A stretch of 4,987 nt of DNA from a virus (taxonomy: Duplodnaviria > Heunggongvirae > Uroviricota > Caudoviricetes), in IMG/VR virus record IMGVR_UViG_2713896783_000037; one strand, written 5' to 3'. A model generated the notes under the pieces. It saw only the letters and a program-made list of their open reading frames with translations, made no database searches and was not told the origin of the DNA. The translations under genes and the position numbers were made by a program. Of this stretch, positions 115-4,987 are shown in pieces (the first letter of the stretch is position 1; each line of letters begins with the position of its first letter).

Positions 115-190
115 GCCGATATAGCTCAGTTGGTAGAGCAGCGCATTCGTAATGCGAAGGTCGTAGGTTCGACTCCTATTATCGGCACCA
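115..190 (+). tRNA. thrW: tRNA-Thr, anticodon CGU
   Basis: 76-nt cloverleaf: acceptor stem GCCGATA/TATCGGC, D-loop AGCTCAGTTGGTAGAGC, anticodon loop containing CGT, T-arm GGTTCGACTCC, encoded 3' CCA. Matches my recollection of enterobacterial thrW. Confidence 0.9.
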
Positions 191-204
191 TTTAAATCAA
201 TAAG

Positions 205-1179
205 TTACACATCATTAGTACCTTCCTTATTTTTTGACTGGGACAAATTTGGGACCGATGGGTTCAGGATCGAGTCTATTTGCCGTGCGTGTTCGGTAAG
301 GTGATTAGGTGCAAGGTGAGCATATCGACGAACCATTTCGATAGACTCCCAGCCTCCCATTTCCTGTAACACTGACAACGGGACTCCGGCTTGAACCAGC
401 CAACTTGCCCAGGTGTGTCTCAAGTCGTGAAATCTGAAATCATCAATACCAGCCCGTCTCAGCGCCGCTTTCCAGGCTGTGTTTGCGTCATACCGCATCT
501 TCCTTACTGTTGGCGCTTTCGTTCCGTCTGGTTTGGTACAGCTTTCCTTGTACACAAATACCCAACGGTGATGATTACCGATTTGTTTTTTCAATACGCG
601 ACATGCAGTATCATTCAGCGCAACGCCAATTGCGCGGTTTGATTTACTCTCTTCCGGGTTTATCCATGCCACCCGGCGCTGCATATCTATTTGTTGCCAT
701 TCAAGGTTGATGATGTTCGAGCGTCTTAAGCCTGTTGCCAGTGCAAATTCAACAACAGACTTTAATGGCTCCGGACATTCATCAATCAGCCTTTGTGCTT
801 CATGGGGCTCCAGCCAGCGGAGCCGTTTATTCTTTGGTTGAGGCACTTTAATAATTGGTGCCTTATCGAGCATTTTCCATTCACGCTCTGCGGCTCTTAG
901 CAGGGCCTTTATAAATGAAAGATGCGTAGCCTTCGTTGCAACGGACGCTGGTTTTGGCGTGTATTCTGGAACAGGTTTCCCTTTTTTTCTGCATGCTTCT
1001 GCCCTGAGTTTCCAGTTTTCCTCATGACGCCGGTTCGTCATTTTCTGCATTGCTGAATAAATTTTTGATTCAGTAATGTCTCTTAGTTGCATTCCTGCGA
1101 AATGTTGAAGCCAGAATCCGATCTGCTTTCCATTGAGCCTGTTTCTCTGCGCGACGTTCGCGGCGGCGTGTTTGTGCAT
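205..1179 (-). CDS. int: Tyrosine recombinase (phage integrase), 5'-truncated; catalytic domain intact
   Basis: Catalytic signature residues are present: R in ATGLRRSN, H-x-x-R in [11 protein letters not shown] in VRRYAHL. The stop is 15 bp from the tRNA 3' end. Integrase-derived sequence begins only at about 1122; the first 19 codons of the ORF ([19 protein letters not shown]) are lambda N coding DNA read in the +1 frame, and an in-frame stop lies at 1201-1203. The N-terminal (arm-binding) region of a full-length integrase of this kind therefore appears to be missing. Confidence 0.8.
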
Positions 1180-1183
1180 CCAT
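1124..1183 (-). pseudogene. N: Antiterminator N, 5' fragment (first 20 codons only)
   Basis: ATG at 1183-1181 is preceded by AGGAGAATCCAG and encodes [20 protein letters not shown], the arginine-rich boxB-binding N-terminus of lambda N. After codon 20 the sequence switches to integrase DNA and the N frame runs on as [17 protein letters not shown] to a stop at 1070. Confidence 0.8.
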
Positions 1184-1340
1184 CTGGATTCTCCTGTTAG
1201 TTAGCTTTGGTTGTGTGTGGGAGTCGTAGTCCTGAACGAAAACACCCCGCAATGGCACATTGGCTGCTAATCCGGATTCGCACTTCCGGCCAATGCTTCG
1301 TTTCGTATCACACACACCAAAGCCTTCTGCTTTGAATGCT

Positions 1341-1371
1341 GCCCTTCTTCAGGGCTTAATTTTTAAGAGCA
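1341..1371 (-). promoter_or_regulatory. nutL (boxA plus boxB hairpin)
   Basis: On the minus strand: TGCTCTTAA (boxA-like) followed by GCCCTGAAGAAGGGC (boxB stem-loop, identical to lambda nutL boxB as I recall it). Lies in the pL leader upstream of the N start. Confidence 0.7.
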
Positions 1372-1404
1372 TCACCTTCATGGTGGTTAGTGCGTCCTGC
1401 TGAT

Positions 1405-1473
1405 GTGCTTAGTATCACCGCTAGTGGTATTTGTGTCAACACCGCCAGAGATAATTTATCACCGCAGATGGTT
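1405..1473 (-). promoter_or_regulatory. pL promoter with operators OL1, OL2, OL3
   Basis: Minus-strand -35 TTGACA (plus 1434-1439) and -10 GATACT (plus 1411-1416). Three 17-bp cI/Cro operator sites: OL1 1413-1429 TATCACCGCTAGTGGTA, OL2 1437-1453 CAACACCGCCAGAGATA, OL3 1457-1473 TATCACCGCAGATGGTT. Confidence 0.85.
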
Positions 1474-1554
1474 ATCTGTATGTTTTTTATATAGATTTAT
1501 TTTTTGCAGGGTTGTGTGGCTTGGGAGGTGATCGAGAGATCAGAATTGCGTTGT

Positions 1555-1944
1555 TTAGTGAGTTGCACCTATTAATTTTAAAATAAATACAATTGGTGTT
1601 TTTCGAGTTTTTCTTAACTCTTCATGCAGCTCCGTTCTCAGAATATATGATTTTTCGAGTTTGAAATTCTTGCGACCAGGCGTCTTATTGCCAGGCTCAG
1701 GAAGTGGAAGGCGTGTTTGAATGTCGAGTGGTGGACAGTCATAGAAGTAAATTCTATAAAGCTCAAGCGGTTCCCTACGTTCTTGTGATTGATGTTTTCC
1801 ATTAAGATGGGAAAGAACCATTGACCATATTACTTTCATTATGCATTGCGCAGTCAGTTCATGCTCGGCGAAGTGTTTACGATGCGTAGCATGAACACGC
1901 TGCATGAAAAAACCCGCATCAATTAAAATTGCTGCTTTCTTCAT
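1555..1944 (-). CDS. Hypothetical protein (129 aa, basic) in the rexA/rexB position of the immunity region
   Basis: The only ORF in the six-frame track between OL and cI. ATG at 1944-1942 with a weak GGGA Shine-Dalgarno. AT-rich relative to flanking lambda-like DNA. No family recognised; the N-terminal MKKAAILIDAGFF resembles the first strand-Asp motif of PIN/NYN-type folds, but this is a weak impression only. The last ~16 codons lie in DNA homologous to lambda's non-coding region right of OL. Confidence 0.5.
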   Translation of the reverse strand: MKKAAILIDAGFFMQRVHATHRKHFAEHELTAQCIMKVIWSMVLSHLNGKHQSQERREPLELYRIYFYDCPPLDIQTRLPLPEPGNKTPGRKNFKLEKSYILRTELHEELRKTRKTPIVFILKLIGATH

Positions 1945-1953
1945 AAGAGTCCC

Positions 1954-2014
1954 AAAAAAATAGCCCAGAGCCGTTATGCAGATATTAACAATTGTCTGCG
2001 AACGGGGCTGGGCT
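1954..2014 (-). terminator. Intrinsic terminator immediately downstream of cI
   Basis: On the minus strand: AGCCCAGCCCCGTT...AACGGCTCTGGGCT imperfect GC-rich stem (7+5 bp with a 2-nt internal mismatch, inner GCAGA/TCTGC pairing) followed by ATTTTTTT. Begins 57 nt after the cI stop and ends 9 nt before the ORF129 ATG. Confidence 0.6.
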
Positions 2015-2024
2015 TGGTTTAATT

Positions 2025-2054
2025 AATCTATGCCAAGTTGACTGTGCCGTCAAC
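2025..2054 (-). promoter_or_regulatory. Candidate promoter (TTGACG-17-TAGATT) overlapped by the inverted repeat GTTGAC-N6-GTCAAC
   Basis: Minus-strand -35 TTGACG (plus 2048-2053) and -10 TAGATT (plus 2025-2030) with a 17-bp spacer. A perfect 6-bp inverted repeat at plus 2037-2054 overlaps the -35. Pattern only. Confidence 0.25.
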
Positions 2055-2071
2055 ATAAAACTTACTTCCTA

Positions 2072-2788
<717 letters not shown>

Positions 2789-2796
2789 TTAAATCT

Positions 2797-2860
2797 ATCA
2801 CCGCAAGGGATAAATATCTAACACCGCGCGTGTTGACTACTTTACCTCTGGCGGTGATAA
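2797..2860. promoter_or_regulatory. Right operator OR3-OR2-OR1 with divergent promoters PRM (leftward) and PR (rightward)
   Basis: OR3 2797-2813 TATCACCGCAAGGGATA, OR2 2819-2835 TAACACCGCGCGTGTTG, OR1 2843-2859 TACCTCTGGCGGTGATA. PR -35 TTGACT 2832-2837 and -10 GATAAT 2855-2860. cro Shine-Dalgarno TAAGGAGG at 2873-2880. Confidence 0.92.
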
Positions 2861-2876
2861 TGGTTGCATGTACTAA

Positions 2877-3086
<210 letters not shown>

Positions 3087-3093
3087 ATAACCC

Positions 3094-3125
3094 CGCTCTT
3101 ACACATTCCAGCCCTGAAAAAGGGC
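3094..3125 (+). promoter_or_regulatory. nutR (boxA CGCTCTTACACATTCCA plus boxB GCCCTGAAAAAGGGC), followed by the tR1 region
   Basis: boxA at 3094-3110, boxB hairpin at 3111-3125. The following 3126-3200 contains the palindromes ACACC-TAT-GGTGT and GTATGCA-TTTATT-TGCATAC, typical of the lambda tR1 rho-dependent terminator region. Confidence 0.8.
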
Positions 3126-3204
3126 ATCCAATTAAACCACACCTATGGTGTATGCATTTATTTGCATACATTCAATCAATTGTTATCTAAGGAAATACTT
3201 ACAT

Positions 3205-3498
3205 ATGGTTCGTGCAAACAAACGCAACGAGGCTCTACGAATCGAGAGTGCGTTGCTTAACAAAATCGCAATGCTTGGAACTGAGAAGACAGCGGAAGCT
3301 GTGGGAGTTGATAAGTCGCAGATCAGCAGGTGGAAGAGAGACTGGATTCCAAAGTTCTCAATGCTGCTTGCTGTTCTTGAATGGGGGGTCGTTGACGACG
3401 ACATGGCTCGATTGGCGCGACAAGTTGCTGCGATTCTCACCAATAAAAAACGCCCGGCGGCAACCGAGCGTTCTGAACAAATCCAGATGGAGTTCTGA
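3205..3498 (+). CDS. cII: Transcriptional activator CII
   Basis: 97-aa product MVRANKRNEALRIESALLNK...ERSEQIQMEF, identical to lambda CII as I recall it. True start is the ATG at 3205 (RBS TAAGGAAATACTTACAT), not the upstream ATG at 3145 used by the ORF track. Confidence 0.95.
   Translation: MVRANKRNEALRIESALLNKIAMLGTEKTAEAVGVDKSQISRWKRDWIPKFSMLLAVLEWGVVDDDMARLARQVAAILTNKKRPAATERSEQIQMEF
3214..3227 (-). promoter_or_regulatory. CII-binding site of PRE (TTGC-N6-TTGC)
   Basis: Plus GCAAACAAACGCAA is the reverse complement of TTGCGTTTGTTTGC, the direct-repeat CII recognition motif flanking the -35 of the leftward establishment promoter, embedded in the first codons of cII as in lambda. Confidence 0.6.
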
Positions 3499-3520
3499 GG
3501 TCATTACTGGATCTATCAAC
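3442..3520 (-). ncRNA. oop: oop antisense RNA (overlaps the cII 3' end)
   Basis: Minus strand reads GTTGATAGATCCAGTAATGACCTCAGAACTCCATCTGGATTTGTTCAGAACGCTCGGTTGCCGCCGGGCGTTTTTTATT. This matches my recollection of lambda oop, including the terminal GC hairpin and U-run. A pO-like promoter (CATAAT -10) lies just upstream within the start of O. Confidence 0.7.
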
Positions 3521-3530
3521 AGGAGTCATT

Positions 3531-4329
3531 ATGACAAATACAGCAAAAATACTCAACTTCGGCAGAGGTAACTTTGCCGGACAGGAGCGTAATGTGGCAG
3601 ATCTCGATGATGGTTACGCCAGACTATCAAATATGCTGCTTGAGGCTTATTCGGGCGCAGATCTGACCAAGCGACAGTTTAAAGTGCTGCTTGCCATTCT
3701 GCGTAAAACCTATGGNNNNNNNNNNNNNNNNNNNNNNNNNNNNNNNNNNNNNNNNNNNNNNNNNNATGAATATTATCAAGCAGCAAGGCGGCATGTTTGG
3801 ACCAAATAAAAACATCTCAGAATGGTGTATCCCTCAAAACGAGGGAAAATCCCCTAAAACGAGGGATAAAACATCCCTCAAATTGGGGGATTGCTATCCC
3901 TCAAATTGGGGGATTGCTATCCCTCAAAACAGGGGGACACAAAAGACACTATTACAAAAGAAAAAAGAAANNNNNNNNNNNNNNNNNNNNNNNNNNNNNN
4001 NNNNNNNNNNNNNNNNNNNNGCAGAGTGGATGTTTGACATGGTGAAGACCATCGCGCCATCAGCCAGAAAACCGAATTTTGCTGGGTGGGCTAACGATAT
4101 CCGCCTGATGCGTGAACGTGACGGACGTAACCACCGCGATATGTGTGTGCTTTTCCGCTGGGCCTGCCAGGACAACTTCTGGTCCGGTAACGTGCTGAGT
4201 CCGGCCAAACTCCGCGACAAGTGGACCCAGCTCGAAATCAACCGTAACAAGCAACAGGCAGGCNTGANAGCCAGCAAACCAAAACTCGACCTGACAAACA
4301 CNGACTGGATTTACGGGGTGGATNTATGA
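3531..4329 (+). CDS. O: Replication initiator O (lambda-type), interrupted by assembly gaps
   Basis: N-terminus MTNTAKILNFGRGNFAGQERNVADLDDGYARLSNMLLEAYSGADLTKRQFKVLLAILRKTYG. Middle segment MNIIKQQGGMFGPNKNISEWCIPQNEGKSPKTRDKTSLKLGDCYPS. C-terminal domain AEWMFDMVKTIAPSARKPNFAGWANDIRLMRERDGRNHRDMCVLFRWACQDNFWSGNVLSPAKLRDKW...DWIYGVD, with the ATGA stop/start overlap onto the P start. Two 50-N runs (3716-3765, 3971-4020), isolated Ns at 4264, 4268, 4302 and 4324, and a 23-bp duplication make frame continuity undeterminable. Confidence 0.85.
3716..3765. other. Assembly gap (50 N) inside gene O
   Basis: Run of 50 N. The corresponding lambda segment is about 99 bp by my recollection, so the gap length looks arbitrary. 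Confidence 0.95.
3829..3937 (+). repeat. Origin iterons (O-binding sites) inside gene O; five copies, followed by an A-rich tract
   Basis: Five inverted-repeat iterons of the form ATCCCTCAAA...GGGGGAT, starting at 3829, 3849, 3873, 3896 and 3919 (spacing 20-24 bp), then CAAAAGACACTATTACAAAAGAAAAAAGAAA running into the gap. Lambda has four as I recall; the third here is present twice. Confidence 0.85.
3874..3919 (+). repeat. Perfect 23-bp tandem duplication (TCCCTCAAATTGGGGGATTGCTA x2) within the origin iterons
   Basis: 3874-3896 and 3897-3919 are identical. 23 is not a multiple of 3, so the O reading frame is shifted after this point relative to lambda (KLGDCYPS then NWGIAIPQNRGTQKTLLQKKKE instead of KQGDTKDTITKEKRK). 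Confidence 0.8.
3971..4020. other. Assembly gap (50 N) inside gene O, just after the origin A-rich tract
   Basis: Run of 50 N. The corresponding lambda segment is about 124 bp by my recollection, so the gap length looks arbitrary. Confidence 0.95.
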
Positions 4330-4637
4330 AAAACATCGCCGCACAGATGGTTAACTTTGACCGTGAGCAGATGCGTCGGATCGCCAACATCGATAACCAG
4401 GACATGACGATATCGGTCTGGGTCTTTCCTGATACTGATATTTCAGATGTATCGCGTGAGTTAATTGCGGCAATTAAACAGGGGTATCTAACAGTAAAAG
4501 CCGCCGGGGTATGGGCGGGGGGCATTGAAACACCTTCGGTGGAAACTCCATCGGAAGGCTCTAAATTTTTTGGTTTTGATATGGATAACGAATTCATCAG
4601 TGGTTTTGATGTAGGGGCATGGGGAGTATTACTCTGA
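4326..4637 (+). CDS. Chimeric ORF: first 21 codons of replication protein P fused to 82 codons of unrelated coding sequence
   Basis: [21 protein letters not shown] matches the lambda P N-terminus (nucleotide identity through 4389). From 4390 the sequence is unrelated ([45 protein letters not shown]...[11 protein letters not shown]). The frame stays open for 82 codons and ends in a TGATG stop/start overlap with the next ORF, suggesting the 3' end of a real gene. Confidence 0.55.
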
Positions 4638-4987
4638 TGGCGAAAAATGACTTTAAAGCGTTTGCAACTGATCGAAATGCCAATGTTATGTCGCAGGAGG
4701 AATGGGAAGCGTTGCCTGCGCTTATATCCGGATTTACAGCAGGGAAAGCATCCAGTGCGCAAGTCAATAAGGTTATTCGGCAGGCCAGCTTTATTGCTGC
4801 AGCTCTGGCCCAGTTTGTAAGTGATAAAACGCAACGGGATGTGCTTGATAATGGTGATCTGCCCGGTTTTGTTGAATTGCTGGGATCGGGGTTTGCTGTT
4901 GAATACCTGAGCCGCAAGAATCCGTTTGGCGATATCAAATCGGACGGCACGGTGAAAACGGCTCTTCAAAACCTTGGTTTGGGAGAA
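4637..4987 (+). CDS. Hypothetical protein, 5' part only (runs off window); possibly a phage tail-fibre N-terminal region
   Basis: ATG at 4637 overlaps the upstream stop (TGATG). Product [82 protein letters not shown]... has protein-like composition, whereas the opposite-strand ORF looks like antisense junk. The tail-fibre assignment is a pattern-level impression only. Confidence 0.55.

Follow-up and report, generated by a model that had tools for sequence, protein, structure and literature searches.

Kil, N-dependent expression, O/P-driven replication and lysis are lethal functions of an induced defective lambdoid prophage. In the Rac, DLP12 and Qin prophages of Escherichia coli K-12, and in the cryptic lambda fragments of laboratory strains, the same decay has been described, with the lethal functions (kil, N, O/P and lysis) gone and the regulators kept; the laboratory fragments had been selected for loss of replicative killing. 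These remnants have other immunity types than the element treated here, which lies in a stretch of 4,987 nucleotides of tailed-phage DNA (IMG/VR record IMGVR_UViG_2713896783_000037; hereafter the window, numbered from its first letter). By its sequence, the window is the left half of a known, heavily deleted, lambda-like cryptic prophage, named Sp1 in E. coli O157:H7 strain Sakai and CP-933H in strain EDL933 (also S-loop 16 or O-island 8). Having already been annotated and studied, the element is not new: Sp1 has been annotated since the O157:H7 genomes of 2001, and measurements published in 2009 cover both its immobility and the SOS response of its transcription. In the scoring of Asadulghani et al., Sp1 is positive for repressor and for Cro, with Int defective, Xis absent, replication defective and late functions all absent (PMC2669165). 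Neither excision nor replication nor packaging of Sp1 was found by these authors, with no circular form and no DNA amplification after mitomycin C (PMC2669165), in agreement with a preliminary description of the window, made from the letters alone, according to which the element could not excise or replicate. The residual early genes of Sp1 were clearly induced by mitomycin C, an effect whose significance was called unknown by the authors (PMC2669165).

In the present analysis, the region is interpreted as the immunity and replication remnant of Sp1/CP-933H at thrW, left by two internal illegitimate deletions in an SfI-like hybrid prophage, and we hold this interpretation to be highly probable. 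What is added to the published knowledge of Sp1 is the nucleotide-level anatomy of the two large deletions, evidence that the similar lengths of the gene stubs at their joints have no detectable cause, two more lesions in the supposedly intact core (a frameshift in O, and truncation of the rex-slot gene at an IS629 hotspot) and a plausible cause of the induction of Sp1 by mitomycin C, namely an intact SOS-cleavable repressor together with a pR promoter that would now read into tail-fibre genes. The importance of the analysis is otherwise small, being mostly bookkeeping.

Identity and genomic position of the prophage

The window is 99.97% identical to Sp1 of strain Sakai over the aligned stretches, with one mismatch in 3,715 nucleotides, the other differences being the window's own N positions; and a gap-free O157:H7 copy (L001) is 100% identical to it wherever the window is not N. 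In the Sakai record, the interval 300042–310627 (10,586 bp) is annotated as "prophage Sp1, lambda-like phage"; cI, cro and cII are entered there as genes, and pseudogenes are entered for int (ECs_0271), O (ECs_0277) and P (ECs_0279). The sequence also agrees with the profile of Sp1 given in Table 1 of PMC2669165, as it holds a defective int, no xis, defective replication genes, and an intact repressor and Cro. The window starts with the end of proA, followed by thrW, and both in L001 and in Sakai the element has proA upstream and the integrase of the P4-like prophage Sp2 downstream, which is the placement of Sp1. Its attachment site comprises two features:

115–190 (+): thrW, tRNA-Thr (CGU), the 3' part of which is the phage attachment site (ARAGORN; Rfam tRNA, 71.8 bits; Sakai annotation)
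145–191 (unstranded): attL core, a 47-bp direct repeat, found with 100% identity as attR at L001 22731–22777 and at 11600–11646 of the Sakai region L012, and matching the attP core of SfI

The attL and attR repeats are 10.6 kb apart. Beyond the window end, 5.7 kb more of Sp1 extend up to attR, with tail-fibre genes, pin, PD-T4-3 and an AraC regulator. It had been allowed beforehand that sequence outside the window might restore a complete prophage, and the sequence examined beyond the window restores none. At least 80% of the window is held in one place by 203 of 5,426 complete E. coli genomes; among the matches listed, every genome named by serotype is O157:H7, at 99.9% identity, and the sources listed are cattle, food and human, with several submitters.

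The two large deletion joints

The preliminary description had proposed that the immunity region is bounded by two joints, each keeping about 20 codons of the adjacent lambda gene, and that alignment to lambda and its relatives should be used to check it. This alignment maps both joints to the nucleotide, with 97.2% identity to lambda over the shared parts. At joint 1, N is kept for 61 nucleotides (20 codons and 1 nucleotide) and is cut at 1123; at joint 2, P is kept for 64 nucleotides (21 codons and 1 nucleotide) and is cut at 4389. The features on either side are:

205–1123 (−): truncated integrase ('int), residues 83–387 of an SfI-type tyrosine recombinase (98.9% identity to SfI 21231–22209; Pfam Phage_integrase, E 2.4e-47; marked incomplete or pseudogene in the L001 and Sakai annotations)
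1123 (unstranded): joint 1, int codon 82/83 joined to N nucleotide 61, with one shared base (alignments to SfI, lambda and ev099)
1124–1183 (−): N' remnant, the first 20 codons of lambda N, including the arginine-rich boxB-binding motif (residues 1–20 identical to lambda N; start codon 1183–1181)
4326–4389 (+): P' remnant, the first 21 codons and 1 nucleotide of lambda P (lambda alignment, translation)
4389–4390 (unstranded): joint 2, P nucleotide 64 joined in frame to codon 145 of a DUF2612 baseplate gene, with no microhomology (junction alignment)
4390–4637 (+): 3' end (82 codons) of the DUF2612 baseplate/tail gene fused to P', Sakai pseudogene ECs_0279 (97.7% identity to vB_EcoM-611R5 35969–36216)

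Around joint 1, homology to the integrase of Shigella phage SfI extends over 145–1123 (98.9%) and homology to lambda and to Escherichia phage ev099 starts at 1123, with 1 base common to both. The truncated integrase, which is 99.6% identical to the full-length int of strain Z1836, has lost its N-terminal 82 residues and its Pfam catalytic domain is complete. Its frame stays open through N' to an out-of-frame ATG at 1179, giving an open reading frame (ORF) of 324 codons (205–1179, −) that corresponds to the Sakai pseudogene ECs_0271. N' in turn continues for 17 codons, out of frame with int, to a stop, giving an ORF of 37 amino acids (1070–1183, −), of which the Sakai ECs_0272 is a longer, 81-codon version. 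Around joint 2, lambda homology stops at 4389, equivalent to lambda 39645 (lambda P starts at 39582), and the full-length DUF2612 baseplate protein matches Pfam DUF2612 with E 2.5e-47. A genome survey of both joints, also suggested beforehand, was carried out on the same 5,426 genomes with probes of 80 nucleotides, the one across joint 1 being fully covered in 215 genomes and the one across joint 2 in 204, and both joints are thus fixed in a natural lineage.

These counts bear on the possibility that the joints are assembly mis-joins aided by runs of N, or that the island is what is left of a laboratory lambda cassette. The window does contain two 50-N gaps and four single Ns, and lambda pL/cI cassettes are common in laboratory strains. 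However, the two 50-N runs, which in the gap-free copy stand for 100 and 124 real bases, are both inside O, remote from the joints, and are consistently filled in complete genomes; the very same joints are seen in over 200 complete genomes, those listed having been isolated from cattle, food or patients and deposited by several submitters; and the island is flanked not by vector but by phage genes, for an integrase and a baseplate protein. Furthermore, cI differs from that of lambda at four positions only, by natural substitutions that are shared with ev099, and none of these is the position of cI857 (which is A66T). Artefact and construct, the latter of which had been left open in the preliminary description, are refuted by the presence of the same joints in the gap-free complete genomes checked, and the probability that we give to either is negligible. 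On the contrary, the natural relative of lambda that had been favoured is what the data describe, since the region is 99.0% identical to ev099 in addition to its similarity to lambda, shares its cI with ev099 and is present in over 200 complete genomes.

Origin of the immunity island

A route to the present structure is offered by the natural phage SfI, in which the same int (98.9%) and the thrW core are found together with an early region of lambda immunity, ordered and oriented as in Sp1, and are followed by late genes and a contractile tail; simple internal deletions in such a genome would thus reproduce the layout of Sp1. On SfI coordinates, joint 1 corresponds to the loss of about 5.7 kb and joint 2 to the loss of about 23 kb, which together with the remaining 10.6 kb give a genome of about 40 kb; this is a normal size for such phages. 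The ancestor would have been a thrW-integrating hybrid of the SfI/SfV/e14 kind, whose integrase was of the SfI type, whose early region had lambda immunity and carried an NYN gene in the rex slot, and whose tail module was contractile. First, about 5.7 kb between int codon 82 and N codon 20 would have been lost by illegitimate deletion, and with them the arm-binding domain of Int, xis, exo-bet-gam, kil, cIII and the greater part of N; a second deletion, of about 23 kb and reaching from P codon 21 into the baseplate gene, would have removed P, ren, nin, Q, the lysis, terminase and head genes and most of the tail genes; and later lesions would have included a 576-bp deletion and traffic of the insertion sequence (IS) IS629 in the rex slot, and a 23-bp iteron duplication frameshifting O. 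We infer both the order and the independence of these deletions. Selection against lethal functions (kil, N-dependent expression, O/P replication and lysis) would give a rationale for which genes went.

For the similarity of the two stubs, whose lengths differ by 3 nucleotides, recombination at conserved gene starts had been listed among the possible causes. This does not hold, since homology is continuous across N codon 20 and P codon 21. An origin of the joints at a mosaic boundary or by recombination at gene starts was rejected, because lambda, ev099, SfI and the prophage of O55:H7 strain CB9615 are homologous without a break at these points and microhomology amounts to 1 and 0 nucleotides. 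When the breakpoints of joints 1 and 2 were compared in the four sequences involved, nothing shared was found (microhomology of 1 nucleotide at joint 1 and 0 at joint 2), and the partner breakpoints are at unrelated gene-internal positions, int codon 82 and baseplate codon 145. The near-equal lengths of the stubs are best read, from these alignments, as a coincidence with no detectable cause.

Several observations weigh against the derivation of Sp1 by two deletions from an SfI-like hybrid. An undeleted direct ancestor of Sp1 was not found. The full-length thrW prophage of O157:H7 strain Z1836 has an int 99.6% identical to that of Sp1, but a right end only 97.2% identical and a non-lambda immunity; for these reasons, and because its baseplate gene is of the YmfQ type and not of the DUF2612 type, it was rejected as the direct parent. 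Strain CB9615 has an unrelated int at thrW, in a different, intact lambdoid prophage, and was rejected as a source of the undeleted ancestor because the int of this prophage is only 76% identical and its repressor is different. The tail module of Sp1 is not SfI-like at the DNA level, and SfI was rejected as donor of the tail end because only 78 nucleotides of DNA match. In addition, both endpoints would fall in the first 64 nucleotides of their genes with a frequency of about 2% if breakpoints were uniform per gene (our own calculation), an estimate that is a post hoc comparison and so of little weight. Finally, no published test of lambda immunity conferred by Sp1 was found in the literature.

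The same facts can be used to consider capture in a single event, by which a 3.8-kb lambda fragment, from N codon 20 to P codon 21, would have replaced the interior of a resident SfV/e14-like thrW prophage by double illegitimate recombination. In that case the stubs would mark where a single captured piece begins and ends, rather than being separate deletion scars, and their near-equal lengths would need one coincidence only; besides, the lineage II-like strain Z1836 does have a full-length thrW prophage with the same int (99.6%), a homologous right end and a non-lambda immunity. Nevertheless, the Z1836 prophage is not the parent, as its right end is only 97.2% identical whereas the left 1,123 bp (proA end, thrW and int) reach 99.6%; the genes of the block are ordered and oriented as expected in a genome of the SfI type, and in SfI this int is found together with lambda immunity; and two independent illegitimate joints with 0–1 nucleotides of homology are needed under either model. 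We regard a capture of this kind as very unlikely, and we favour two internal deletions in an SfI-like hybrid as the origin of the island.

The immunity switch

Between the two joints, all the elements named in the preliminary description (pL/OL, cI, OR, cro, cII, oop, and O with the origin) are present, although O is not intact but a frameshifted pseudogene. Those of the switch and its neighbours are:

1341–1371 (−): nutL, with boxB at 1341–1355 and boxA at about 1364–1371 (lambda alignment; boxB hairpin picked up in a scan, L001 13341–13355)
1411–1473 (−): pL 1439–1411, OL1 1413–1429, OL2 1437–1453 and OL3 1457–1473 (alignment to lambda operators; promoter scan TTGACA-17-GATACT)
2072–2785 (−): cI repressor, 237 amino acids, intact (Pfam HTH_3 and Peptidase_S24)
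2796–2861 (unstranded): OR3 2796–2812, OR2 2819–2835, OR1 2843–2859 and pR 2833–2861, with pRM not mapped separately (comparison with lambda, ev099 and SfI; pR scan TTGACT-17-GATAAT)
2886–3086 (+): cro, protein identical to lambda Cro (protein comparison)
3205–3498 (+): cII (Z0310/ECs0276), protein identical to lambda CII (protein comparison; PMC3355084)
3447–3556 (−): oop antisense RNA unit, with the promoter po at 3556–3528 and a terminator hairpin at 3474–3447 (promoter and terminator scans; 98.4% lambda identity over 2068–3715)

The repressor is identical to lambda cI at 233 of its 237 residues, the substitutions being T3A, K71N, R129K and D139G, and it is identical to the cI of ev099. Both OL and OR are tripartite with lambda half-sites, and the sole change in an OR operator is at the central base of OR2. 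Two changes are specific to the O157 copy when compared with lambda, ev099 and SfI, namely T to C at this central base and T to C at a base of the pR spacer (positions 2827 and 2839). An Rfam scan of the window returned the tRNA only, and oop was confirmed instead by promoter, terminator and homology. With cI, Cro, CII, operators and promoters conserved, the lambda switch looks intact as judged from the sequence. The Sp1 repressor is very probably active, as the residual early genes respond to mitomycin C. A literature search on the Sp1 locus tags returned no functional study of the Sp1 cI, the only relevant match being Zhang 2007.

Further lesions in O and in the rex slot

Decay of the island extends to the genes at both sides of the switch, where three features were recognized:

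1555–1944 (−): truncated rex-slot gene (Sakai ECs_0273, Z0308), 116 native codons of a 285-amino-acid NYN-domain protein followed by 13 foreign codons (full-length gene in ev099, L002 4543–5400)
1597 (unstranded): joint 3, a loss of 576 bp with respect to ev099, including the 3' 170 codons of the rex-slot gene as well as the t_imm terminator (ev099/lambda alignment)
3531–4329 (+): O pseudogene with ori, containing five iterons instead of four, its coordinates being compressed by the two 50-N runs (TRF; translation of the gap-free copy; annotated as "frameshifted"/pseudogene)

The lesion in O is a perfect 23-bp tandem duplication of the iteron-3 unit (3873–3895 and 3896–3918; TRF: period 23, 100% match), because of which the frame is shifted after residue 141, and it is present in all four O157:H7 copies examined (L001, L006, L007 and Sakai). 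The region does not have the makeup of a functional lambda replicon, with O frameshifted, P reduced to 21 codons and five iteron units.

It had also been suggested that the element would express whatever occupies the rex slot. The occupant turns out to be a truncated gene, with 116 of 285 codons and without the stretch that matches NYN. The Pfam NYN match in the full-length ev099 protein is found only at residues 158–205, a stretch deleted from the remnant; the remnant gave no Pfam and no PADLOC match, and the full-length ev099 protein gave a weak match to NYN or HEC-09 in the deleted part only. A sigma-70-like site (TTGACG-17-TAGATT, 2025–2053, −) is present in the 127-bp gap between cI and the rex slot and might be the rex-slot gene's own promoter. 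Joint 3 is a hotspot for the insertion and excision of IS629/IS1203 among O157:H7 strains, and three states were distinguished. In state A, the IS is forward and without target duplication, AATTGG[IS]AGGCTG; in state B, it is reversed and with a TTA duplication; and in state C, that of the window, Sakai and EDL933, there is no IS and 7 bases are absent from the inferred pre-insertion site. In two other O157:H7 copies, this site corresponds to L006 1798–3111 and to L007 2685–4005. To judge from its bases, state C looks like an imprecise IS excision, and it is present in 108 genomes, versus the 215 carrying joint 1. The "minimal island" is still decaying.

Predicted behaviour of the remnant

In a lysogen, the intact, RecA-cleavable cI would hold pL and pR shut, and DNA damage would open both. 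We propose that the Sp1 early genes are induced by mitomycin C because an SOS-cleavable lambda repressor still guards these two promoters. On the right side, pR would read cro, cII, O' and the P' fusion, and then directly the tail-fibre and assembly genes, because the deletion took away the nin terminators and the requirement for Q; an intrinsic-terminator scan of the plus strand from pR to the tail-fibre genes predicted none. The first of these genes starts in the window:

4637–4987 (+): start of the tail-fibre gene ECs_0280, first of an invertible tail-fibre, tfa and pin cassette that extends past the window (L001 and Sakai annotations)

The tail-fibre genes Z0314 and Z0316 of CP-933H have been reported with log fold changes (logFC) of 6.0 and 5.3 (about 40–64-fold) under trimethoprim-sulfamethoxazole (PMC4048457), an antibiotic induction that fits read-through from pR. 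On the left side, pL would read the N stub and the truncated int. After induction, nothing in Sp1 would be able to excise, replicate or lyse.

Some additional observations concern the left side. The overlapping ATG of the truncated-integrase frame opens four bases downstream of the start of N', and transcripts from pL could give both a boxB-binding peptide (the 37-amino-acid ORF) and an Int devoid of its arm domain. As the t_imm terminator was removed by joint 3, transcripts from pRM may also reach N' and 'int.

Distribution and loss among O157:H7 strains

Sp1 occupies thrW in O157:H7 lineages I and I/II. By array hybridisation, every lineage I and I/II strain was positive for ECs0272–ECs0280, which is exactly this block, and the 12 lineage II strains were all negative (PMC1890555). 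Among the 215 genomes carrying joint 1, 11 are without joint 2. In strain 1613 (L008 2046–4845), IS629 is present at joint 3 and is adjoined by a deletion spanning cI to the tail fibre. What occupies thrW thus differs among O157:H7 strains, as seen both in this deletion and in strain Z1836, where a full-length SfV/e14-like prophage is interrupted by a Mu-like prophage (L010, L011 and L013).

This distribution is relevant to the question of domestication, the preliminary description having spoken of a domesticated remnant. In a selected module, cI-cro-cII would have been kept either because they make lineage I immune to lambda-immunity phages or because they place the tail-fibre cassette or host genes under SOS-responsive control. 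Consistent with it, five lesions have left no early genes intact except cI, cro and cII, Sp1 transcription is SOS-responsive, the tail-fibre genes, which are antibiotic-induced, were brought by the deletion immediately downstream of pR, and 100% of the strains tested from lineages I and I/II have the block. However, O157:H7 is a young clone, in which conserved sequence, such as the 99.9% near-identity among strains, is no sign of selection; the block is present in 0 of 12 lineage II strains; joint 2 is gone from 11 of 215 genomes with joint 1, and the loss in strain 1613 is an IS629-adjacent deletion; the truncated rex-slot gene and the frameshifted O show ongoing decay; and no phenotype has been reported. 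Given the absence of the block from lineage II and the loss of its part from cI to the tail fibre in strain 1613, domestication is unproven, and we judge it unlikely.

A more specific proposal is that joint 2 rewired the cI/pR switch, without need of N or Q, to an SOS-inducible cassette of tail-fibre, assembly and invertase genes, while joint 1 put an integrase lacking its arm domain and a 37-amino-acid N peptide under pL. The products might then serve other defective prophages of O157:H7 (by fibre donation, changing host range) or interfere with lambda-type phages, and the block would be a selected trait of lineage I rather than debris. We consider this very unlikely. A phenotype of lambda immunity or of SOS-driven fibre expression, should there be one, would serve as a marker trait to tell lineages I and I/II from lineage II.

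Other genes of the prophage

Outside the window, two genes of the remaining part of Sp1 were examined. The product encoded at L001 19636–20409 (−), about 2.5 kb past the window end and beside pin, has a full-length match to the PADLOC defence protein PD-T4-3 (E 2e-140) and contains a LEM-3-like GIY-YIG nuclease domain (Pfam). To go by this match, Sp1 carries a known anti-phage defence gene, PD-T4-3. In e14, this slot is occupied by mcrA. The second gene, at L001 21233–21976 (+), encodes an AraC-family regulator near attR, and the same protein (WP_000246059.1) is encoded in the different thrW prophage of Z1836. This regulator is probably PatE, an activator of acid-resistance operons that CP-933H is stated to encode in a passage of PMC3681947 citing Bender et al. 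2012.

Comparison with known systems

The described Sp1/CP-933H and the window agree in the thrW site, in the pseudogenes of int, O and P and in cI, cro and cII, with no difference of substance; some O157:H7 strains differ from the Sp1 of the window in having IS629 at joint 3 or larger deletions. Among intact phages, the likeness to SfI (and to SfV, SfII, SfIV and the e14 element of K-12) lies in the thrW core, in an int with 98.9% identity, in a lambda-type early region and in contractile-tail genes followed by tail-fibre genes; in contrast, SfI is intact, carries rexAB and gtr, and has tail genes that are unlike those of Sp1 in DNA save for 78 nucleotides. Phage ev099 (Radostvirus ev099) is 99.0% identical over the shared region, with an identical cI and the same NYN gene in the rex slot, but it is a complete genome of 47 kb with full N, O and P and a 285-amino-acid NYN gene, the deletions being found in Sp1 only. 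Other wild phages with lambda immunity, namely 2B8, mEp332, CL707 and HK244, were reportedly described by Degnan and co-workers in 2007. Finally, the immunity region of lambda itself has the same OL, OR, nutL, oop and ori iterons, identical Cro and CII, a cI with 4 substitutions in 237 residues and 97.2% DNA identity, whereas Sp1 has a truncated NYN gene in place of rexA and rexB, retains 20 codons of N and 21 of P, carries an O whose frame is shifted by an additional iteron unit, and differs at the central base of OR2 and at a base of the pR spacer.

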